The position numbers and the translations under genes were made by a program. Under the pieces are notes generated by a model, which saw nothing but the letters and a program-made list of their open reading frames with translations, searched no databases and was not told where the DNA came from. 8,929 nucleotides of DNA, taken from a virus. Taxonomy: Duplodnaviria > Heunggongvirae > Uroviricota > Caudoviricetes. The stretch covers positions 1-8,929 of IMG/VR virus record IMGVR_UViG_2609459860_000002; one strand, 5' to 3'. Each line of letters starts with the position of its first letter. Position 1 is the first letter of the stretch. Positions 1 to 8,929 of the stretch are shown one piece after another.

Positions 1-153
1 CTGGATGACATCCGGGCGGGACGCATTGAGCGCGCCATTTCACGCTGTCGCAATATCTGGGCGTCCCTGCCGGGTGCCGGTTACGGTCAGCGTGAGCATT
101 CACTGGAAAAACTGGTCACCGTCTGGCGTACCGCTGGCGGCGTACCGGCTTAA
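1..153 (+). CDS. K: Endolysin (P2 gpK-like), 3' end only; 5' end lies outside the window
   Basis: Frame-1 reading frame open from the window edge to TAA at 151-153 (ends ...EHSLEKLVTVWRTAGGVPA). It sits immediately upstream of lysA/lysB/lysC, as K does in the P2 lysis cassette. The assignment rests on position and on my memory of P2 K, not on a search. The ORF-track entry 5..334 is a different frame and is not this gene. Confidence 0.55.
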   Translation: MDDIRAGRIERAISRCRNIWASLPGAGYGQREHSLEKLVTVWRTAGGVPA

Positions 154-167
154 ACGGAGTAAACACC

Positions 168-593
168 ATGAAGAAATTATCCCTTTCACTGATGCTGAAC
201 GTGTCGCTGGCGCTGATGCTGGCACTGTCCCTGATTTACCCGCAGAGCGTGGCCGTCAATTTTGTCGCTGCCTGGGCGATTCTGGCGACGGTTATCTGTG
301 TGGTTGCCGGTGGTGTCGGCGTGTATGCCACTGAGTATGTGCTGGAACGCTACGGGCGGGAGCTGCCGCCGGAATCGCTGGCCGTGAAGATTGTCACGGC
401 GCTGTTTTTGCAGCCGGTGCCGTGGCGCAGGCGGTCAGTGGCTCTGGTAGTGATGGTGGCGACGTTTATCTCGCTGGTCGCTGCCGGGTGGATTTTTACT
501 GCGCTGATTTATCTTGTGGCGTCGCTGTTTTTCCGGCTGATACGTACGGCCTGCCGTCAGCGTTTTGAGGGGCGGGAACCATGTCAAAGCTGA
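168..593 (+). CDS. lysA: LysA-like lysis accessory membrane protein (P2 LysA family)
   Basis: 141-aa ORF with a GGAG Shine-Dalgarno upstream (about 158-161). The protein is dominated by long hydrophobic stretches consistent with several transmembrane helices. Position between K and lysB matches P2. Confidence 0.8.
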   Translation: MKKLSLSLMLNVSLALMLALSLIYPQSVAVNFVAAWAILATVICVVAGGVGVYATEYVLERYGRELPPESLAVKIVTALFLQPVPWRRRSVALVVMVATFISLVAAGWIFTALIYLVASLFFRLIRTACRQRFEGREPCQS

Positions 594-1006
594 TGACTGT
601 GCTGGTTGTGTTGTTATCACTGGCGGTGGCCGGTCTGTTTCTGGTGAAACATAAAAATGCCAGCCTGCGCGCCTCGCTGGACAGGGCGAACAACGTCGCC
701 AGTGAACAGCAGACGACCATCACCATGCTGAAAAATCAGCTTCATGTTGCGCTCACCAGGGCAGACAAAAACGAGCTGGCGCAGGTGGCACTGCGTCAGG
801 AGCTGGAGAACGCCGCGAAGCGTGAAGCACAGCGCGAGAAAACCATCACGAGGTTACTGAATGAAAACGAAGATTTCCGCCGCTGGTACGGTGCTGACCT
901 GCCTGATGCTGTGCGCCGGTTGCACCAGCGCCCGGCCTGCGCAGACGCCAGTGATTGTCCACAACGCCTGCCCGAAAGTGAGTCTTTGCCCGATGCCGGG
1001 CAGTGA
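581..1006 (+). CDS. lysB: LysB, Rz-like inner-membrane spanin (i-spanin)
   Basis: 141-aa ORF overlapping the lysA 3' end by 13 nt. It has an N-terminal hydrophobic anchor (MSKLMTVLVVLLSLAVAGLFLV) followed by a charged, coiled-coil-like periplasmic region, which is typical Rz architecture. It contains lysC in another frame. Confidence 0.8.
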   Translation: MSKLMTVLVVLLSLAVAGLFLVKHKNASLRASLDRANNVASEQQTTITMLKNQLHVALTRADKNELAQVALRQELENAAKREAQREKTITRLLNENEDFRRWYGADLPDAVRRLHQRPACADASDCPQRLPESESLPDAGQ

Positions 1007-1151
1007 CCCGCAGACGAACGGCGATTTAAGTGCCGATATCCGGCAGCTTGAGAACGCGCTGGCACGCTGTGCCAGCCAGGTAAAAATGATTAAACACTGT
1101 CAGGACGAAAACGATGCTCAAACCCGACAGCCTGCGCAGGGCGCTGACTGA
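861..1151 (+). CDS. lysC: LysC, Rz1-like outer-membrane lipoprotein spanin (o-spanin)
   Basis: 96-aa ORF that starts inside lysB in a different frame and runs past the lysB stop into R. A GAGG Shine-Dalgarno sits about 6 nt upstream. The N-terminus is a signal-peptide-like segment ending in a lipobox-like LCAGC, followed by a proline-rich mature region (PAQTPVIV...CPMPGSDP), the hallmark of Rz1-type proteins. Confidence 0.75.
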   Translation: MKTKISAAGTVLTCLMLCAGCTSARPAQTPVIVHNACPKVSLCPMPGSDPQTNGDLSADIRQLENALARCASQVKMIKHCQDENDAQTRQPAQGAD

Positions 1152-1581
1152 TGCCGTCACGGTGCTGAAAACTAACCCCGATATGCTGCGGATATTCGTG
1201 GATAACGGGAGTATTGCCTCCACACTGGCGACGTCGCTGTCATTCGAAAAGCGTTACACGCTCAATGTCATTGTGACCGACTTTACCGGTGATTTTGACC
1301 TGCTCATTGTGCCGGTGCTGGCGTGGCTGCGGGAAAATCAGCCCGACATCATGACCACCGACGCAGGCCAGAAAAAGGGCTTCACATTTTATGCAGACAT
1401 CAACAATGACAGCAGCTTTGATATCAGTATCAGCCTGATGCTGACCGAGCGCACGCTGGTCAGTGAGGTGGACGGCGCGCTGCATGTGAAGAATATCCCG
1501 GAACCCCCGCCGCCGGAGCCGGTCAACCGCCCGATGGAGCTTTATATCAATGGCGAACTGGTGAGCAAGTGGGATGAATGA
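1114..1581 (+). CDS. R: Tail completion protein R (P2 gpR family)
   Basis: 155-aa ORF, the size I recall for P2 gpR, in the expected position after the lysis genes. Its stop overlaps the S start (ATGAATGA). Confidence 0.8.
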   Translation: MLKPDSLRRALTDAVTVLKTNPDMLRIFVDNGSIASTLATSLSFEKRYTLNVIVTDFTGDFDLLIVPVLAWLRENQPDIMTTDAGQKKGFTFYADINNDSSFDISISLMLTERTLVSEVDGALHVKNIPEPPPPEPVNRPMELYINGELVSKWDE

Positions 1582-2032
1582 GTTTAAGCGTTTTGAAGAC
1601 CGGCTGACCGGACTGATTGAGTCGCTGTCACCGTCAGGGCGTCGGCGACTGGCGGTAGATATTGCGAAGAAGCTGCGCCAGCGCCAGCAGCAGCGAATTA
1701 AATTACAAAAAGCCCCGGATGGTACGCCGTATGTACCGAGAAAAAACCAACCAGTACGAAATAAGAAAGGCCGGATAAAGCGGGAAATGTTTGTGAAATT
1801 ACGCACTAACCGGTTTATGAAAGCAACAGGTAGCGAGAGTGCGGCGGTGGTGGCGTTTGCCAGCGGAGTACAACGAATTGCGCGAGTACATCAATTAGGG
1901 CTTAGGGATAAGCCGGGGCGTAATAGTGCTGTGGTGGAATATCCTGTTCGTGAGTTATTTGGTTTTGACAAGGAATCTATACAATTGATAGAAAGGGAGT
2001 TATTAGTGATTCTATCGAAAGATGTTATATGA
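1574..2032 (+). CDS. S: Tail completion protein S (P2 gpS family)
   Basis: 152-aa ORF whose N-terminus (MNEFKRFEDRLTGLIESLSPSGRRRL...) matches my memory of P2 gpS. The last 40 or so codons (from about 1900) lie in AT-rich DNA continuous with the downstream insertion. Its TGA (2030-2032) overlaps the ATG of the next gene (ATGA). Confidence 0.8.
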   Translation: MNEFKRFEDRLTGLIESLSPSGRRRLAVDIAKKLRQRQQQRIKLQKAPDGTPYVPRKNQPVRNKKGRIKREMFVKLRTNRFMKATGSESAAVVAFASGVQRIARVHQLGLRDKPGRNSAVVEYPVRELFGFDKESIQLIERELLVILSKDVI

Positions 2033-2784
2033 GACGGGTGTTTGTGGATAAAAAGTTTTCCATTTTGAGAAAAAGAGTAAAGCATTCTCAAAAGAAAGTT
2101 ATGGATTGTATTATTGCTGACCATAATGCTGATATATGTGTGTTATGCGGGAGTTCTGACGATATTACTCGTGAGCACATTATTCCTCAGTGGGCCTTTG
2201 AGTCAAATGCTGAAAAATCTTTAATTAATAAAAAGAATAATCAGTCAACTCATTACATTAAAGCTACTGTACCAGCATGCAGAGTGTGCAATTCTGATTT
2301 GCTGGGAGCGTTTGAGTATAACCTGAAGAAATTTCTTACGGAAAAGAGGGGCGATGAGTTAACAGATTATGAATATGACTGCATCATATGGTGGTTGCAA
2401 TACATGGGCTTTAAGTTGCAATTAATGGATTTACGGACCCGCTTTCTCAGGTATAAAGGGGGGGATTATATCCCTTTCCTTGCAAACTTCCCGGTTGCAA
2501 TGTTTTGGGGGAATGTCGATACGACACCGGAGGATGTCTTCAGGATTATAAGAAAATCGCGACGCAATCTGATGTCGAAATGGAAGGATAAAAAACATAA
2601 TTCTTTGATGGTTTTTGAAACATCAAACAAGAGTTTTCATTTCTTTCATAAGGTTGATGAATTTATTTTTATTGAAATGCCTCAGGTTAAGAAGGCGTTT
2701 TTCTTCTTTTTTAATAAAGAATTTGACAGCCATGATTTAGCTCATGAGGAGTGTATGAAGATTATAGAGAAGTGCTACAACTAA
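2029..2784 (+). CDS. Low-GC cargo ('moron') protein with an N-terminal HNH (beta-beta-alpha-Me) nuclease-like domain and an uncharacterised C-terminal region; function unknown
   Basis: 251-aa ORF, the only long ORF on either strand of the AT-rich island. HNH signature by direct reading: C37-x2-C40-G ... E49-H50-I-I-P ... C84-x2-C87-N (CVLCGSSDDITREHIIPQW...PACRVCNSD), i.e. two CxxC zinc knuckles flanking an E-H-I-I-P catalytic-histidine motif. Hand-counted GC is about 27-38% in 60-nt samples against about 58% in V. The start at 2029 is chosen for the ATGA overlap with S; an internal ATG at 2101 (M25) is an alternative start. Confidence 0.75.
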   Translation: MRRVFVDKKFSILRKRVKHSQKKVMDCIIADHNADICVLCGSSDDITREHIIPQWAFESNAEKSLINKKNNQSTHYIKATVPACRVCNSDLLGAFEYNLKKFLTEKRGDELTDYEYDCIIWWLQYMGFKLQLMDLRTRFLRYKGGDYIPFLANFPVAMFWGNVDTTPEDVFRIIRKSRRNLMSKWKDKKHNSLMVFETSNKSFHFFHKVDEFIFIEMPQVKKAFFFFFNKEFDSHDLAHEECMKIIEKCYN

Positions 2785-2861
2785 TATTTATTATGTTGTA
2801 TCACAGCTGACAGAATCCTCCATGATTGCTGCTGGTATCATCCAGCGGCATCCTTCCCGTT
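2785..2861 (+). promoter_or_regulatory. Candidate late promoter for the V-W-J-I-H transcription unit (P2 P_V-like, Ogr/Delta-activated class)
   Basis: A 77-bp intergenic gap directly upstream of V. It contains an imperfect dyad TGT(2794-2796)-N13-ACA(2810-2812), resembling the TGT-N12-ACA activator element of P2-type late promoters, and a TATCAT -10-like hexamer at 2836-2841. The spacing is one base off consensus and no transcript data exist, so this is weak. Confidence 0.25.
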
Positions 2862-3497
2862 ATGAACACTCTCGCAAATATTCAGGAACTCGCGCGCGCA
2901 CTGCGCAACATGATTCGTACCGGCCTTGTCGTCGAAACCGACCTTAACGCCAGTCGCTGCCGTGTGCAGACCGGCGGCATGTGCACCGACTGGCTTCAGT
3001 GGCTGACCCATCGCGCCGGGCGTTCGCGCACATGGTGGGCACCTTCCGTGGGGGAACAGGTGCTGATTCTGTCCGTGGGCGGCGAACTCGACACGGCGTT
3101 TGTTCTGCCGGGGATTTATTCCGGCGATAACCCTGCGCCGTCTGCGTCGGCTGATGCCCTGCATATCCGTTTCCCTGACGGGGCGGTGATTGAGTATGAA
3201 CCCGAAACCAGTGCACTCACGGTAAGCGGAATTAAAACGGCCAGCGTGACGGCTTCTGATTCTGTTACTGCCACGGTGCCGGTGGTCATGGTGAAAGCAT
3301 CAACCCGCGTCACTCTGGACACGCCGGAGGTGGTCTGCACAAACAAGCTGATCACCGGCACGCTGGAAGTGCAGAAGGGCGGGACGATGCGCGGCAACAT
3401 TGAACACACCGGCGGTGAACTCTCATCAAACGGGAAGGTACTGCATACCCATAAACACCCCGGCGACAGCGGCGGCACAACCGGGAGTCCTCTATGA
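2862..3497 (+). CDS. V: Baseplate central spike protein V (P2 gpV family)
   Basis: 211 aa from ATG 2862 (MNTLANIQELARALRNMIRTG...HTHKHPGDSGGTTGSPL), matching my memory of P2 gpV in sequence and length. The ORF-track start at 2826 is a TTG in the same frame and is probably not the true start. The stop overlaps the W start (ATGA). Confidence 0.9.
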   Translation: MNTLANIQELARALRNMIRTGLVVETDLNASRCRVQTGGMCTDWLQWLTHRAGRSRTWWAPSVGEQVLILSVGGELDTAFVLPGIYSGDNPAPSASADALHIRFPDGAVIEYEPETSALTVSGIKTASVTASDSVTATVPVVMVKASTRVTLDTPEVVCTNKLITGTLEVQKGGTMRGNIEHTGGELSSNGKVLHTHKHPGDSGGTTGSPL

Positions 3498-3841
3498 CAG
3501 CGCGTTATCTCGGAATGAATCGCAGTGATGGCCTGACTGTCTCTGACCTTGAGCATATCAGCCAGGGTATCGGCGATATCCTGCGCACGCCGGTCGGCTC
3601 ACGGGTGATGCGTCGTGATTACGGCTCGTTGCTGGCGTCAATGATTGACCAGCCGCAGACCCCGGCGCTTGAGTTGCAGATTAAGGTCGCCTGTTACATG
3701 GCCGTGCTGAAATGGGAACCCCGCGTCACCCTGTCATCCGTCACCACGGCGCGCAGTTTTGACGGGCGAATGACGGTCACGTTAACCGGTCAGCACAACG
3801 ACACCGGCCAGCCACTTTCGTTAACCATCCATGTGAGTTGA
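3494..3841 (+). CDS. W: Baseplate wedge protein W (P2 gpW, T4 gp25-like)
   Basis: 115-aa ORF in the conserved position after V, translationally coupled to it (ATGA overlap). The size matches P2 gpW. Confidence 0.88.
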   Translation: MTARYLGMNRSDGLTVSDLEHISQGIGDILRTPVGSRVMRRDYGSLLASMIDQPQTPALELQIKVACYMAVLKWEPRVTLSSVTTARSFDGRMTVTLTGQHNDTGQPLSLTIHVS

Positions 3842-3845
3842 AACC

Positions 3846-4754
3846 ATGCCGATTATCGACCTGAACCAGCTACCCGCACCGGATGTGGTCGAGGAGCTGG
3901 ACTTTGAAACCATTCTTGCCGAACGCAAGGCGACACTGATTTCCCTTTACCCGGAAGACCAGCAGGAGGCGGTCGCCCGTACCCTGACGCTGGAATCTGA
4001 GCCTCTCGTCAAACTGCTGGAGGAAAATGCTTATCGTGAGCTTATCTGGCGTCAGCGTGTGAATGAGGCCGCACGGGCGGTGATGCTGGCTTGTGCCGCC
4101 GGTAATGACCTTGATGTGATTGGTGCCAATTACAACACCACGCGCCTGATTATCACCCCGGCAGATGATTCGACTATCCCGCCGACACCGGCAGTGATGG
4201 AGTCTGACACCGATTATCGTCTGCGTATTCAGCAGGCGTTTGAGGGCTTAAGCGTCGCCGGGTCGGTGGGAGCCTATCAGTATCATGGTCGCAGTGCCGA
4301 CGGGCGCGTCGCAGATATCTCTGTCACCAGTCCGTCTCCGGCCTGCGTCACCATCTCTGTGCTGTCACGTGAAAATAACGGCGTCGCATCCGAAGACCTG
4401 CTGGCCGTGGTGCGTAACGCCCTTAATGGCGAGGACGTCAGGCCGGTGGCCGACCGCGTGACCGTGCAGTCTGCCGCCATTGTTGAATATCAGATAAACG
4501 CCACGCTTTACCTTTACCCAGGTCCCGAAAGCGAACCCATCCGCGCTGCTGCCGTGAAAAAACTGGAAGCGTACATCACGGCACAGCACCGGCTTGGGCG
4601 CGACATCCGTCTGTCTGCCATTTATGCCGCTTTGCATGTGGAAGGCGTGCAGCGTGTCGAACTGACTGCACCTCTGGCTGACATCGTGCTCAACAGTACG
4701 CAGGCGTCTTTCTGTACTGAATACCGCGTCGTGACTGGAGGCTCGGATGAGTGA
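3846..4754 (+). CDS. J: Baseplate protein J (P2 gpJ, T4 gp6-like)
   Basis: 302-aa ORF in the conserved position after W. The size matches P2 gpJ. Its 3' end overlaps the I start by 8 nt. Confidence 0.88.
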   Translation: MPIIDLNQLPAPDVVEELDFETILAERKATLISLYPEDQQEAVARTLTLESEPLVKLLEENAYRELIWRQRVNEAARAVMLACAAGNDLDVIGANYNTTRLIITPADDSTIPPTPAVMESDTDYRLRIQQAFEGLSVAGSVGAYQYHGRSADGRVADISVTSPSPACVTISVLSRENNGVASEDLLAVVRNALNGEDVRPVADRVTVQSAAIVEYQINATLYLYPGPESEPIRAAAVKKLEAYITAQHRLGRDIRLSAIYAALHVEGVQRVELTAPLADIVLNSTQASFCTEYRVVTGGSDE

Positions 4755-5358
4755 TTCGCGCCTGCTGCCGACCGGCTCATCACCGCTTGAAGTCGCCGCC
4801 GCAAAAGCCTGTGCGGAAATTGAAAAAACGCCGGTCAGTATTCGTGAGCTGTGGAACCCGGATACCTGTCCGGCAAATCTGCTGCCGTGGCTGGCGTGGT
4901 CATTTTCGGTTGACCGCTGGGATGATAAGTGGCCGGAAGCGACAAAACGCGCTGTTATCCGCGATGCGTATTTCATTCACTGCCATAAGGGCACTATTGG
5001 TGCGATTCGCCGTGTGGTGGAGCCGCTCGGATATCTGATTGAGGTGAGGGAGTGGTGGCAGCTCAACGAGGAGCCGGGGACGTTCCGCATCGTTGTTGGC
5101 GTGCTTGAGCAGGGTATTACCGAGGAAATGTATCAGGAGCTGGAGCGCCTCGTTGCTGATGCAAAACCGGCGAGCCGCCATCTGACGGGACTGGCTATCA
5201 GTTTAAGTACAACCGGCAACATTTTTGCCGGTGCGGGATGCTATCACGGTGACGCCCTGACGGTTTATCCCTACACCCCGGAGGCCATTATTGTCGGAGG
5301 GGATTATTTCCCGGCCTCGGCCATTCATTTAATTGATAACCTGAGAGTAAACGCATGA
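4747..5358 (+). CDS. I: Baseplate protein I (P2 gpI family)
   Basis: 203-aa ORF between J and H in conserved synteny, with an ATGA overlap onto the H start. It is somewhat longer than the P2 gpI length I remember (about 176 aa), so the start codon choice is uncertain. Confidence 0.8.
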   Translation: MSDSRLLPTGSSPLEVAAAKACAEIEKTPVSIRELWNPDTCPANLLPWLAWSFSVDRWDDKWPEATKRAVIRDAYFIHCHKGTIGAIRRVVEPLGYLIEVREWWQLNEEPGTFRIVVGVLEQGITEEMYQELERLVADAKPASRHLTGLAISLSTTGNIFAGAGCYHGDALTVYPYTPEAIIVGGDYFPASAIHLIDNLRVNA

Positions 5359-6635
5359 CAGTGAAATACTACGCCATTCTGACTAATCAGGGCGCAGCAC
5401 GGCTGGCTAACGCGACGATGCTCGGCAGTAAGCTGAATCTGACGCAAATGGCCGTTGGTGATGCGAATGGTATCTTGCCGACACCAGACCCGGCACAGAC
5501 AAAACTGATTAATCAGAAACGCATTGCACCGCTGAATCTTCTGAGTGTTGACCCGAACAACCAGAGCCAGATTATTGCGGAGCAAATCATCCCTGAGAAC
5601 GAGGGCGGATTCTGGATCCGTGAGATTGGGCTTTATGATGATGAAGGCGTACTCATTGCGGTGGCGAACTGCCCGGAAACGTACAAACCGCAGTTGCAGG
5701 AAGGCAGTGGTCGTACCCAGACTATCCGCATGATTCTGGTTGTCACGAATACCGAAGCTATCACGCTGAAAATCGACCCGTCGGTGGTACTGGCGACCCG
5801 TAAATACGTGGATGATGAAGTCCTGGAATTAAGGCTGTATGTGGATGACCAAATGAGAAACCATATTGCCGCACAGGATCCTCATACCCAGTATGCACAG
5901 AAACATAATCCGACATTTACCGGAGAACCAAAAGCGCCGACGCCTGCTGCAGGAAATAACACCACGCGGATTGCGACCACTGCGTTTGTTCAGGCGGCTA
6001 TTACCGCTCTGATTAACGGTGCGCCTGCCACGCTGGATACACTGAAAGAAATTGCCGCAGCCATTAACAATGACCCGAAATTCAGCACCACCATTAACAA
6101 TGCGCTGGCAGGTAAACAACCGCTGGACAATACGCTGACTCATTTGAGTGGAAAGGATGTTGCCGGTCTTCTCGCATACCTTGGTTTGGGAGAAGCGGCA
6201 AAACGAAATGTGGGCAACGGGGAAAACCAAATCCCTGATATGTCTTTCTGGACGGTTACTGGTGGCAATGGAAATTTTGTGATTCGTCAACCTGACGGGC
6301 TAATCATTCAGATGGTTACTGTAAGTATAAGCGGTCCAGTGGCGATGAATGGAATGACTGATAATGCTTATGCCATTACAGGTTCTAATAAGTCTTATAT
6401 TGCCACAGCCACATTGCCCTTTGTATTTCCTAATAAGGTGCTGGGCGTTATCCCTCTGGTATCAACAACAGCTTATGGTGGTGTATCCAGTAATATTACA
6501 GGTTCATACGCGACGGCGGTTTGTTCTTTTGCCGCTGTCAGGGGGAATAATACGATTGTGTTCAAAGTCGACAAACCACTGAATGCAGCCTTTCCTTCAG
6601 ATACCAGCGTCTCAGCGTTAATCATTGGACGGTAA
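5355..6635 (+). CDS. H: Tail fiber protein H: conserved N-terminal baseplate-attachment region fused to a variable C-terminal tip in the currently expressed orientation
   Basis: 426-aa ORF whose N-terminus (MTVKYYAILTNQGAARLANA...) is the conserved P2 gpH start. GC drops to about 42% after roughly nt 6200. The 26-bp crossover site at 6169-6194 lies in frame within codons for LLAYLGLGE, so residues after about 280 are encoded inside the invertible segment. Confidence 0.9.
   Translation: MTVKYYAILTNQGAARLANATMLGSKLNLTQMAVGDANGILPTPDPAQTKLINQKRIAPLNLLSVDPNNQSQIIAEQIIPENEGGFWIREIGLYDDEGVLIAVANCPETYKPQLQEGSGRTQTIRMILVVTNTEAITLKIDPSVVLATRKYVDDEVLELRLYVDDQMRNHIAAQDPHTQYAQKHNPTFTGEPKAPTPAAGNNTTRIATTAFVQAAITALINGAPATLDTLKEIAAAINNDPKFSTTINNALAGKQPLDNTLTHLSGKDVAGLLAYLGLGEAAKRNVGNGENQIPDMSFWTVTGGNGNFVIRQPDGLIIQMVTVSISGPVAMNGMTDNAYAITGSNKSYIATATLPFVFPNKVLGVIPLVSTTAYGGVSSNITGSYATAVCSFAAVRGNNTIVFKVDKPLNAAFPSDTSVSALIIGR
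6169..6194. repeat. Left crossover site of the invertible tail-fiber segment (gix/cix/pix-like, 26 bp), inside H
   Basis: TTCTCGCATACCTTGGTTTGGGAGAA. Its partner at 8153-8178, read as reverse complement (TTTTCATAAACGTTGGTTTGGGAGAA), matches at 21 of 26 positions including the last 14 consecutive bases. The two sites are therefore in inverted orientation, as inversion requires. Confidence 0.75.
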
Positions 6636-6637
6636 GA

Positions 6638-7081
6638 ATGAACTCAGTATTCTTTTCACCCGGAAGTAAAAGTTTTTATCTGCAAGAATTGTTTCCAGAA
6701 TATGAGGATGCGGGAACGCTTCCTGATGATGTTATTGAAATTACCAGAGAAACATATGAGCAATTTCTTGGGCTGCATCCAGAAGGGAAAGAAATTGGCG
6801 CTGACAGTTCAGGACGACCAGTATGGATTAATTCCCCACCGCCTTCAAAAGAGGATGAGGTGCTGGCGGCTGAAATGAAAAAAATATCTTTGGTTTCAGA
6901 AGTCAATACCTACATCAATACCCATCAGTGGCCTGGCAAAGCTGCTATTGGTCGTCTGAAAGGTGACGAGCTGGAACAATATAATTTATGGCTGGATTAT
7001 CTGGACGCACTGGAACTGGTTGATATCTCCAGCGCTCCAGATATTGAATGGCCTACGCCTCCGGCAGTTCAGGCCAGATGA
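6638..7081 (+). CDS. G: Tail fiber assembly protein (Tfa, P2 gpG-like), partner of the currently expressed fiber tip
   Basis: 147-aa ORF directly after H. Its C-terminus (...LVDISSAPDIEWPTPP...) is the conserved Tfa C-terminal motif, also present in the opposing tfa' (...TDTSTAPDVIWPELPEA). Confidence 0.8.
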   Translation: MNSVFFSPGSKSFYLQELFPEYEDAGTLPDDVIEITRETYEQFLGLHPEGKEIGADSSGRPVWINSPPPSKEDEVLAAEMKKISLVSEVNTYINTHQWPGKAAIGRLKGDELEQYNLWLDYLDALELVDISSAPDIEWPTPPAVQAR

Positions 7082-7655
7082 CGTCCGGCGCTGTGCTGGT
7101 ATCTGTTGCCGTCACCGCGTCAATATAATCCAGCACAGCGTTAAGTCGGGTGTTTTCTGTCTGCATCAGCTTCCGCCCGGCCTGCAATTTCAGTTGAATC
7201 AGACTAATGGAAGCCATTGCAGTATCAATCAGTGACTGACGCTGTGCTTCTGCCGCGCCTACTGCGGCGCTATGCTGTGCCTCAGTATCGGTCACCCATT
7301 TCTCACCATCCCATTTATCGTATGGCGTTAACGGGGCGATAGTGGTTGTATTTTCAGGATAATCACCCGGAGCTGTGATTTCTTTCGATTCTCCTGTTTC
7401 GGTGCTATAGATGATTTCACCGCGATGGTCTGGCACATATTCCCATGAGTTAAAATCTGCAGAACGGCAGATTGCATAACCAGCTTTATGTGTAACTGGT
7501 GTATCTAAACAAGAACATGCCGGGATACCGACGCCAACCGCAAGATATTCAGTTGATGTGGAAATATATTCCCGTGTTTCACCATCATAATTATAAATGG
7601 TAATGACTCCCGCTTTTATGGCAATGAGTTCGTTATTTAATACGGCTTTATTCAT
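7053..7655 (-). CDS. Alternate tail fiber assembly protein (Tfa'), cognate to the inverted fiber tip
   Basis: 200-aa ORF on the - strand with the Tfa-type C-terminal motif. Its 3' end overlaps the + strand tfa 3' end by 29 bp (7053-7081). Its ATG overlaps the stop of the upstream - strand fiber-tip segment (TGATG). Confidence 0.82.
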   Translation of the reverse strand: MNKAVLNNELIAIKAGVITIYNYDGETREYISTSTEYLAVGVGIPACSCLDTPVTHKAGYAICRSADFNSWEYVPDHRGEIIYSTETGESKEITAPGDYPENTTTIAPLTPYDKWDGEKWVTDTEAQHSAAVGAAEAQRQSLIDTAMASISLIQLKLQAGRKLMQTENTRLNAVLDYIDAVTATDTSTAPDVIWPELPEA

Positions 7656-7657
7656 CA

Positions 7658-8167
7658 GGCAGCCCTCACGATATAATTAAAGGCAATGTTACGAGGACGG
7701 TTTTCGTTTGCAGTTGGAACAATTCTTGAAGCATCAAGGCCAATCACTTTTGGGTAAACAGCGCCATCTGTTCTTTCTGTCACCATACTTCTGATTAAGG
7801 AGAAATAACTATTGTTCGTTGAGGGGTTCAAAGGCACCACTGCCCCCTTAAAAGAGCCTGCTGATTCCCATATTGAATAATTTTCGGTGTTTACAGTCTT
7901 GAACTCACCATAGATATTACGTATGGCATCGCCCTGAGCTGATAATATTGTTCTCCCCGCATCCGCACTACGCCCATCATCCCAGCCACGAATAAATTCA
8001 CCGCGTAAATCAGGCAATTTATTTGTCGGGTAAGCCTTTGCCAGTTCCGGGTATTCTTCAGCAGAAAAAGCTGCTCCGTTGCATTTCAGCCAGCCTGTTG
8101 GCGGAGTGGCTGAGGGCCACGGAACAGGCACCCCAACAGGTAATGCAGAGCCTTCTCCCAAACCAAC
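7658..8167 (-). CDS. Alternate tail-fiber C-terminal tip (H', promoterless and startless; expressed only after inversion fuses it to the H N-terminal region)
   Basis: The - strand frame is open through the right crossover site, encoding ...VGLGEGSALPVGVPVPWPSATPPTGWLKCNG...NIAFNYIVRAA. The ending NIAFNYIVR(L/A)A is the canonical C-terminus of P2 H / Mu S-type fibers as I recall them. The ORF-track Met codons at 8201-8206 lie beyond the crossover and are not a real start. Confidence 0.82.
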
Positions 8168-8178
8168 GTTTATGAAAA
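8153..8178. repeat. Right crossover site of the invertible segment (26 bp)
   Basis: TTCTCCCAAACCAACGTTTATGAAAA, located about 55 bp upstream of the invertase start. Its left half-site TTCTCCCAAACC is the reverse complement of the right half-site of the 6169-6194 site. It closely resembles cix/gix-type sites from memory. Confidence 0.75.
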
Positions 8179-8233
8179 TGCAGAGATAACGGCTAACTGG
8201 CATCATCTCCGGTTTTTATTCAGGGGATCCATC

Positions 8234-8827
8234 ATGCTTATTGGCTATGTCCGCGTATCAACAAATGACCAGAACACGGAATTGCAGCGTAACGCGCTGG
8301 AATGCGCGGGATGTGAGCGGATTTTTGAGGACAAAATCAGCGGCACGAAGTCCGACAGGCCGGGACTGAAAAAACTGCTCAGGACATTATCGGATGGGGA
8401 TACACTGGTAGTCTGGAAGCTGGACCGGCTGGGGCGTAGTATGCGGCATCTGGTCATTCTAGTTGAGGAACTGCGCGAACGTGGCATTAATTTTCGCAGC
8501 CTGACGGATGCTATTGATACCAGCACGCCGATGGGGCGTTTTTTCTTTCATGTGATGGGTGCCCTGGCTGAAATGGAGCGAGAACTCATTGTCGAGCGGA
8601 CACGCGCCGGACTGGAAGCGGCCAGAGCCAAAGGTCGTATTGGTGGCAGACGTCCGAAACTCACCGCGAGTGAGTGGGAGCAGGTCGGACGGTTGCTGGC
8701 TGCGGGGGAATCTCGTCAACGCGTGGCGCTGATTTTTGATATTGGCCTGTCCACGCTCTATAAAAAATTCCCCTCATCAGCGACAAAGAATAAATTGTGT
8801 CATCCCTTAGCCAACCGGGACAAATAG
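8234..8827 (+). CDS. Serine DNA invertase, Gin/Pin/Cin/Hin family
   Basis: 197-aa ORF beginning MLIGYVRVSTNDQNT..., with the catalytic Ser at residue 9 (TCA, 8258-8260). It carries conserved invertase blocks (GDTLVVWKLDRLGRSM, GINFRSLTD, MGRFFFHVMGALAEMERELI, RIGGRRPKLT) and a C-terminal helix-turn-helix region (...RVALIFDIGLSTLYKK). An AGGGGA Shine-Dalgarno lies upstream. I cannot tell from sequence alone which named invertase it is closest to. Confidence 0.92.
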   Translation: MLIGYVRVSTNDQNTELQRNALECAGCERIFEDKISGTKSDRPGLKKLLRTLSDGDTLVVWKLDRLGRSMRHLVILVEELRERGINFRSLTDAIDTSTPMGRFFFHVMGALAEMERELIVERTRAGLEAARAKGRIGGRRPKLTASEWEQVGRLLAAGESRQRVALIFDIGLSTLYKKFPSSATKNKLCHPLANRDK

Positions 8828-8886
8828 CCTGACATCTCCGGCACAACTGAAAATACCACTCACCCATTAACCACGGAGTTAAACGG

Positions 8887-8929
8887 ATGAGTGACTATCA
8901 TCACGGCGTGCAGGTGCTGGAGATTAACG
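8887..8929 (+). CDS. FI: Tail sheath protein FI (P2 gpFI family), first 14 codons only; continues beyond the window
   Basis: ATG at 8887 preceded by a GGAG Shine-Dalgarno (8874-8877). It encodes MSDYHHGVQVLEIN, which matches my memory of the P2 FI N-terminus. It is too short for the ORF track. Confidence 0.6.
   Translation, partial: MSDYHHGVQVLEIN

Follow-up and report, generated by a model that had tools for sequence, protein, structure and literature searches.

How far does foreign DNA reach when an accessory gene settles between two late genes of a phage, and does it end where the genes end? This question is raised by a stretch of 8,929 nucleotides (nt), called the window here and covering positions 1 to 8,929 of the IMG/VR virus record IMGVR_UViG_2609459860_000002, whose open reading frames (ORFs) and domain calls identify it as the late region of a P2-like (Peduovirus) phage. 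Between gene S (tail completion or virion morphogenesis; 1574..2032, plus strand, 152 amino acids (aa), Pfam Phage_tail_S with an E value of 2.5e-29) and gene V (baseplate spike; 2862..3497, plus strand, Pfam Phage_base_V and Phage_spike) lies an AT-rich ORF, referred to below as the cargo gene (2044..2784, plus strand, 246 aa counted from GTG 2044), which would encode an HNH-like zinc-finger nuclease with the HNH-like core at ~2137-2292. The S-V slot, the site of orf30 in P2, is counted among the three classical variable regions of P2-like phages (PMC6823313). We consider it likely that the cargo gene is part of an exchangeable cassette of this slot, that the cassette is exchanged by homologous recombination, and that its gene is expressed by late read-through and translated from GTG 2044; what we describe would then be the left boundary of that cassette, placed inside S.

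The cargo gene is located between S and V just as in phage R18C, and orf30 of P2 occupies the same position. From 1400 to 3100 the window is 97.6% identical to R18C, and most other P2-like phages align at the flanks only. One IMG/VR contig encodes S and cargo proteins identical to those of the window, and of 5,426 complete E. coli genomes, 77 carry the cassette and ~1,576 a P2-type S; many E. coli genomes match positions 1-78 only of a query made of 1574-2900. Empty S-V slots measure 66-68 nt and are made up of the V promoter. In short, the hallmarks of an S-V slot cargo are all found here, namely deviant composition, a sporadic presence among close relatives and the existence of empty slots, and from the latter the slot content is apparently dispensable.

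The preliminary description of this DNA placed a drop in guanine-plus-cytosine (GC) content at roughly 1900, about 130 nt ahead of the S stop, and its end at about 2820. Sliding-window GC across the 1500-3000 region confirmed a drop inside the 3' end of S: in 200-nt windows, GC was 0.585 at 1501-1700, 0.36 at 1901-2100 and 0.565 at 2801-3000, with 0.48 over 1701-2000. A two-change-point likelihood fit over 1101-3500 delimited a low-GC block of GC 0.356 at 1938..2827, flanked by DNA of GC 0.539 on the left and 0.599 on the right; the support interval of 2 log-likelihood units runs from 1917 to 1964 for the left edge and from 2794 to 2892 for the right one. The island is therefore real and its right edge agrees with the earlier estimate (~2820 vs 2827), but the left edge lies ~95 nt (31 codons) ahead of the S stop, at 1938 and not at ~1900. 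A smaller step occurs earlier in S, from 0.55 at 1574-1651 to 0.50 at 1652-1853 (0.495), and third-position GC declines along the gene from 0.58 in codons 1-26 through 0.51 and 0.38 to 0.27 in codons 123-152, against 0.41 in the cargo gene and 0.67 in V. A shift of this size excludes chance. The same element recurs in R18C and in the 77 E. coli genomes.

When S of the window was aligned to the alleles of P2, Wphi, 186, E. coli 258E, the IMG/VR locus L114 and E. coli strain 1500, the gene resolved into a nested mosaic. The 5' segment (1574..1651, plus strand) is of P2 type, with 97-100% identity to P2 and Wphi. Identity to both breaks at ~1652, and from codon 27 onward the window has a different allele, whose protein is closer to the S homologue of phage 186; over this second segment (1652..1853, plus strand), 30-nt windows give 30-70% identity to P2, and identity reaches ~98% with S alleles that stand beside three other cargos. 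Across the third segment (1854..1966, plus strand) these comparators are lost stepwise: 258E, with a 414-aa ATP-binding protein on the minus strand of its slot, breaks at ~1854; L114, with a 462-aa plus-strand ORF, at ~1890; and strain 1500, with a minus-strand PCRF-domain protein, at ~1967, right after conserved Gly-Phe codons. What remains is the very AT-rich run of the last 22 codons (1967..2032, plus strand; DKESIQLIERELLVILSKDVI and the stop), the smallest piece of S that is exclusive to this cargo. The four alleles with other slot contents are 96-100% identical to the window S up to their break and ~50% identical after it, which supports the earlier proposal that recombination within S brought in the cargo along with a foreign S 3' end; the alignment that had been suggested to locate a break in identity revealed several nested junctions in place of one. 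We rejected a single identity break coinciding with the GC break, given that there are several nested breaks (1652, 1854, 1890 and 1967) and that the GC step, at 1938, lies between those at 1890 and 1967. The outermost junction seems to vary as well: in L067, a cargo-bearing IMG/VR locus of the E. coli clade, 16 clustered differences at window-equivalent positions 1652-1684 match P2 or Wphi bases where comparable, which suggests that its junction with the P2-type 5' part lies ~30 nt further to the right.

We then asked whether the AT-rich S 3' end belongs to the cargo or to S itself. Among the complete E. coli genomes, segment 1895-2032 is present in full in 77 and the cargo in 77, two further genomes matching to ~1970 only; the S 3' end of this cargo was not found at any cargo-less locus among the loci and E. 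coli genomes compared. The slot is filled by relatives of the cargo (55-72% protein identity), in the same orientation and 6-19 nt past the S stop, in numerous diverged P2-like phages from Klebsiella, Kluyvera, Yersinia and further hosts, whose S and V are 60-73% and 61-86% identical to those of the window. All slot-borne relatives follow an AT-rich S 3' end (GC 0.35-0.475 in the last 120 nt of S vs 0.50-0.61 in the first 300 nt), and the C-terminal signature GFD..SIQLIE.ELL is common to the cargo-bearing S alleles. For each lineage, the closest S allele without the cargo was located and the break point was fitted. In at least 10 other backbones, S is 0.90-0.98 identical to that allele until 61-157 nt before the stop and ~0.5 identical from there on; overall, the break points of other lineages lie 52-171 nt ahead of the stop, several of them at 61-85 nt.

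Pairwise comparison of the loci gave the same picture. Among pairs with S 5' 300 nt at least 90% identical, pairs that are not independent of one another, identity over the last 75 nt of S is 0.99 if the cargo is present at both loci (n=111) and 0.56, with a maximum of 0.63, if it is present at one only (n=182). When the S 5' parts are less than 80% identical, the amino-acid identity of the S 3' ends is 0.54 inside the cargo class and 0.33 otherwise. Other cargos behave alike: with S 5' parts at least 90% identical and different cargos, the S 3' ends are 0.59 identical.

That the AT-richness is intrinsic to S genes, whatever the slot contains, is the alternative to be weighed here, and the C-terminal 25 residues of S are in fact variable across the family. 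From a sample of 80 further S loci we obtained 25 non-redundant S alleles beside empty slots, and they refute it: their 3' GC ranges from 0.45 to 0.58 with a mean of 0.547, near their 5' GC of 0.58. The last 120 nt of S have a GC of 0.405 with this cargo, 0.547 with an empty slot and 0.466 with other cargos. The preliminary description had asked whether unrelated P2-like phages share the AT-rich S 3' end regardless of slot content; given the empty-slot values and the lack of any cargo-less locus with this 3' end among those compared, an intrinsic origin is next to impossible in our judgement, and the AT-rich S 3' end appears not to be general to S but to travel with the cargo. A single recent transfer from an AT-rich host was also considered and rejected, given that no cargo-bearing lineage with a wholly AT-rich S was found, the 5' GC of S being 0.50-0.61 throughout.

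Replacement of the S 3' end is not peculiar to this cargo. Many unrelated S-V cargos (L007, L114, L138, L162, L169, L173, L191 and others) have divergent AT-rich S 3' ends of their own, with GC down to 0.33, and some (e.g. L132, L134, L135) follow an S allele with a C-terminus of the empty-slot type. As judged from these alleles, cargos appear to be gained at the S-V slot in two modes, crossover inside S being a common route and not the sole one.

The right-hand junction was examined by alignment to Wphi, P37, P2 and other lineages, with the activator site taken from the P2 annotation, in which S is the last gene of the O operon and an activator-dependent promoter lies ahead of V. The dyad to which the activator of the V promoter binds begins with the half-site GTTGT, which follows the S stop immediately in empty-slot phages; in the window 10 nt separate the cargo stop (2784) from GTTGT. 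The stretch past the cargo stop (2785..2824, plus strand) is cassette-specific, and within it, at 2795-2813, GTTGT-N10-GACA forms the Ogr-type upstream activator site of the V promoter; the conserved core and leader of that promoter follow (2825..2861, plus strand), where ~90% identity to Wphi resumes and marks the junction. As homology resumes only at ~2825, the cassette spans from inside S to ~2824. In other lineages, homology to the closest cargo-less relative is back at or just past the dyad.

From these junctions, the cassette would consist of a diverged AT-rich S 3' end (at least 1967-2032, and here back to 1652), the HNH-like gene, and ~40 nt with the activator site of the V promoter up to ~2824. 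It would move between P2-like phages by homologous recombination, with the left crossover at variable points in S and the right crossover within the brief conserved stretch formed by the V promoter and its leader. A portion of an essential gene would travel with the cargo because the empty slot is nearly all promoter and offers little neutral flanking homology. Once in place, the cargo would be transcribed with the late O operon and translated from GTG 2044.

The start of translation differs from the one first proposed. An ATGA is present where the preliminary description placed it (2029..2032, plus strand), with an in-frame ATG at 2029-2031 that overlaps the S stop TGA at 2030-2032, and it had been read as a device for translational coupling to S. 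This reading does not hold well: inspection of the sequence upstream of ATG 2029 revealed no Shine-Dalgarno sequence, the overlap occurs in the E. coli clade only, and in all other clades the first in-frame start lies beyond the S stop. The conserved N-terminus of the family, MDKKF in alignments of 17 and then 32 members, maps to GTG 2044, which is 11 nt past the S stop and 15 nt downstream of ATG 2029; the codon at this position is GTG or, in R18C-type alleles, ATG, with no other variants. A Shine-Dalgarno-like GGGTG, probably functional, lies 3 nt before it (2036..2040, plus strand), with GGTGAG at the matching place in Klebsiella-type loci, and both PGAP and the authors of the R18C report annotate the start at 2044.

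ATG 2029 as the true start, with the overlap coupling cargo translation to S, has some points in its favour, namely the overlap itself, the 251-aa versions given by gene callers and shared by the largest database cluster, and the strength of ATG over GTG as a start codon. Against it, the five extra N-terminal residues are missing in nearly all aligned homologues, other clades start past the S stop at MDKKF, a radical R-to-W change falls within the five-codon extension in the L058 allele, and GGGTG precedes 2044 only. We consider this start improbable. Given the family-wide MDKKF start, the annotations, the placement of GGGTG and the absence of the overlap in other clades, translation most likely starts at GTG 2044 and the ATGA overlap is most likely incidental; the conserved feature would be the short gap between the S stop and the start, which makes co-transcription and some coupling plausible.

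How, then, is the cargo transcribed? The preliminary description had pointed to a TTGACA at 1965-1970 and a TACAAT at 1980-1985, 9 nt apart, and both are indeed there. The best sigma-70-like site uses the same -35 hexamer (1965..1994, plus strand): TTGACA, an 18-nt spacer, TG at 1986-1987 and TAGAAA at 1989-1994. The promoter scan left this site out, as the last base of its -10 is not T; its score of 10.1 compares with a shuffled best of 8.0 +/- 2.0 (95th percentile 11.7). The TTGACA is encoded by F-D-K codons and straddles a recombination junction. Sigma-70 scoring against shuffled sequences found no promoter in the S 3' end that is above chance or conserved between clades, and a terminator scan found no terminator-like site between S and V. 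The so-called O-operon terminator of P2 adjoins the 3' end of the convergent orf30, and empty-slot phages have no room for one. By these scans, the cargo has neither the own promoter upstream nor the own terminator downstream that are expected of a classical moron. With no room for a promoter of its own outside S and no terminator on either side, the cargo most likely forms a cassette that lacks a promoter and is expressed as the late O-operon transcript runs on into V.

The AT-rich S 3' end could instead be kept because it holds the cargo's own promoter, S coding DNA doubling as a regulatory region, with expression in the lysogen like that of a prophage defence gene. The S 3' end is AT-rich even among cargo lineages whose proteins are 30-45% different, a perfect -35 in the window is paired with a weak -10 extended by TG, and non-phage distant homologues have AT-rich upstream regions with promoters of their own. 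A comparable place, ~20-25 nt short of the S stop, is taken in several clades by TTGAT(T/A)-16/17-TAnnnT (e.g. TTGATT-16-TATTTT), and at conserved residues the final 22 codons of S (aa 131-152) show a codon identity of 0.59, vs 0.47 in the cargo overall. The value for S, however, lies inside the range of the cargo blocks (0.36-0.61), such that synonymous-site conservation is not clearly raised in the S 3' end; no promoter is conserved across clades, the best score of the window falls in the shuffled range, and unrelated opposite-strand cargos also bring AT-rich S 3' ends, where a sense-strand promoter would be useless. An embedded promoter is a possibility we regard as rather doubtful, and late read-through is the reading we retain.

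Two structural features of this part of the cassette were also inspected. Of five RNA folds of the start region, four were not significant, including both folds of the window and those of two other clades (z scores of -0.3 to +0.9), and only that of the L077 segment gave a z of -2.08. Near the 3' end of the cargo, a nearly invariant Phe run (KKAFFFFFNKEF; window 2693-2715) puts a long T-run on the coding strand after a weak 4-bp stem; it resembles a terminator tail but is a conserved coding segment.

The cargo protein corresponds to PHROG 10503 (E 1.5e-177), whose function is annotated as unknown. A first family search gave 45 proteins, and an exhaustive profile search gave 35 representative clusters with an E value of 1e-30 or better. 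It also reached more remote proteins, 300-360 aa long, that share the N-terminal 100 residues only and give weak HNH_5 matches too. The pattern CxxC ... EH..P ... N ... CxxCN is invariant in the family: C32, C35, E44, H45, N65, C79, C82 and N83 (numbered from GTG 2044) are among 49 residues invariant in 32 sequences. In the predicted model, a confident one (predicted local distance difference test score, pLDDT, 81; predicted template modelling score, pTM, 0.83), strands span residues 41-45, 59-61 and 75-79 and a helix starts at residue 80. The HNH_5 and McrA-like beta-beta-alpha-metal nucleases share this pattern with its key residues invariant. Unlike in these, the last catalytic position is N and not H, the score is under the Pfam cutoff, and ~150 C-terminal residues, forming a helical hairpin and a small beta sheet, have no relative in the PDB or the viral structure set. 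A PDB sequence search and NCBIfam returned no match, and PADLOC-DB 2.0 gave no significant defence-model match (best E 0.022). The cargo gene is under purifying selection, with ratios of nonsynonymous to synonymous polymorphism (pN/pS) of 0.08-0.45, mostly 0.08-0.23. From its motifs, the protein is most likely an HNH-like nuclease that cuts or nicks DNA. Disrupted copies of the gene occur in otherwise intact cassettes, as a frameshift-split ORF in L008 (E. coli 1604D011) and a partial match in L093, which points to some decay of the HNH gene despite the overall purifying selection.

Homologues of ~40% identity are solitary AT-rich chromosomal genes (GC 0.23-0.38) in Vibrio, Shewanella, Halomonas, Dechloromonas and other genera, and a copy with 62% identity is found on a conjugative element of Erwinia sp. 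S59 (L013), behind a promoter-like sequence of its own. No S remnant was found upstream of the copy on the Erwinia element or of the ~40%-identity homologues. The gene can therefore live without an S fragment, and the S fragment is part of the phage-borne cassette and not of the gene. Across the sampled hosts (L020-L037, comprising marine and other Proteobacteria, Bacteroidota and a Gracilibacteria genome) the family is AT-rich in every one, including a Dechloromonas contig of 60% GC. The solitary homologues sit between unrelated chromosomal genes; one of them has an SF1 helicase-like gene as its neighbour, and the copy on a viral contig lies close to a DUF4062 protein. The Erwinia copy, at ~3935-3970 of L013, follows traG-like genes and is preceded by a near-perfect palindrome, GATGTCAAAATATTAATTTATATTTTGACATC, that is overlapped by TTGAAG-17-TATATT hexamers and may be an operator. 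In the Klebsiella-type loci L010 (4926-5576, minus strand) and L017, the slot holds a second, opposite-strand gene of 216 aa together with the HNH gene. Our ORF clustering joined P2 orf30-type slots to the HNH-cargo cluster; we suspect that this 216-aa gene is behind it, which would mean stacked cargos.

A nuclease in this position calls to mind the free-standing HNH homing genes mobA-E of T4-like phages (PMC2988022), with which the cargo shares an intergenic site between conserved genes, a promoter-less place in an operon, and an N-terminal HNH domain with a distinct C-terminal domain. The variable junctions in S would fit the flank co-conversion known for those genes, although other, non-nuclease cargos of the slot bring S 3' ends of their own as well. 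The cargo could, accordingly, be a free-standing homing-type HNH endonuclease, made late, that cuts S-V junctions without the cargo in co-infecting or resident P2-like genomes, the variable S junctions arising by co-conversion during repair. It fits this that the gene is intergenic between two conserved essential genes, in a promoter-less and sense-oriented cassette, that its likely start codon is GTG, that its HNH-like domain at the N-terminus is followed by a distinct C-terminal region, and that its distribution is sporadic (77 of the ~1,576 E. coli genomes with a P2-type S) with variable left junctions; these features match the T4 mob and seg genes (PMC2988022), and nuclease genes mark exchange boundaries in other phages (PMC10448857). 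Yet the S 3' end is replaced in like manner beside slot cargos that are not nucleases, such that an endonuclease is not needed for it; unlike the T4 mob genes, the ~40%-identity homologues of the cargo are solitary chromosomal genes without S, and a conjugative element carries a further copy behind a promoter of its own. The HNH type is nearest to HNH_5, and not to the HNH_3 usual for phage homing genes, and fold searches found no recognisable DNA-binding domain. We find homing unlikely as the source of the junctions. A version in which the late-expressed enzyme is homing-type or competitor-directed and cuts cassette-less S-V junctions or genomes, the recoded S 3' end serving as co-conversion tract and as immunity allele, seems to us equally hard to favour. 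If that version were true, the cargo would be a selfish nuclease cassette residing among the tail genes of a temperate phage family, and one of the forces behind turnover of the hotspot.

Exchange of the cassette by homologous recombination, with late read-through and a start at GTG 2044, is thus the account we prefer, and several points weigh against parts of it. The sole domain signal of the cargo is Pfam HNH_5 below its curated cutoff (16.6 vs 27.5 bits), fold searches of the PDB and the viral structure set gave no meaningful structural relative of the model, and no significant match to a curated HNH profile or a solved HNH structure was obtained in the Pfam and fold searches; we infer its nuclease activity from the motifs. 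ATG 2029 may act as an additional start. Weak promoters arise readily in AT-rich DNA, and together with the TTGAT(T/A) hexamers of several clades this leaves room for weak promoter activity, such that the gene may be expressed in the lysogen. The AT-rich S 3' end itself may come from an AT-rich donor lineage or from selection for AT-richness, and the locus pairs on which its linkage to the cargo was measured share the non-independence mentioned above, which makes their p-value a nominal one.

The S-V hotspot and the ORF were already known; the R18C report lists the same 741-bp ORF at the S-V site as a hypothetical protein with no PSI-BLAST information (PMC6823313). What is new here is the nucleotide-level crossover map in the flanking core gene, the promoter element within the cassette, the nested left junctions, the corrected likely start and the sense-strand, promoter-less layout. 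In the P2-like phage literature that we examined, we found no description of a cassette that takes in S codons along with the V promoter's activator site. The orf30 moron site of P2 resembles the present locus in having a cargo in the slot that is low in GC, sporadic among near-identical phages and apparently dispensable. It differs in that P2 orf30 and several other cargos lie on the opposite strand with a terminator, whereas the cargo of the window lies on the late-operon strand, 11 nt past S, with no terminator and no clear promoter. The defence and accessory hotspots of P2-like phages (PMC9122126; bioRxiv 10.64898/2026.02.27.708500) are alike in the rapid swapping of cargos at fixed sites between core genes, but those studies centre on the gpA-portal site and on recognised defence systems, and the present protein matches no PADLOC model. 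The recombination process at such hotspots has been said still to need elucidation (bioRxiv 10.64898/2026.02.27.708500).

P2-like prophages are a major vehicle of accessory and defence genes in enterobacteria, and the unit exchanged at the S-V slot would not be bounded by gene ends: it would take in the last 22 to ~127 codons of S and the activator site of the next late promoter. The C-terminus of S must then tolerate many sequences, hotspot boundaries set at gene borders will misplace the junctions, and the S 3' end should serve as a marker of cargo type in association analyses. For PHROG 10503, the likely start codon is corrected across a widespread HNH-like family. A cargo on the sense strand appears placed for late-gene expression, unlike the opposite-strand cargos of the slot, and this bears on any role in defence in the lysogen.

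The remainder of the window follows the gene order of a P2-like late region, with lysis genes, R (1114-1581), S, the AT-rich ORF, V, W, J, I, the fibre genes H and G, an inverted alternative fibre segment and a DNA invertase. The fibre region contains an invertible switch delimited by 27-nt inverted repeats at 6169-6195 and 8152-8178, which are 81% complementary; the right arm, CTTCTCCCAAACCAACGTTTATGAAAA, is one that we take to resemble invertase crossover sites such as cix or gix. The repeats flank the 3' end of H, gene G, and an alternative fibre end with its assembly gene on the opposite strand (7053-8206, minus strand), and a Hin/Cin-type invertase ORF (8234-8827) adjoins the switch.

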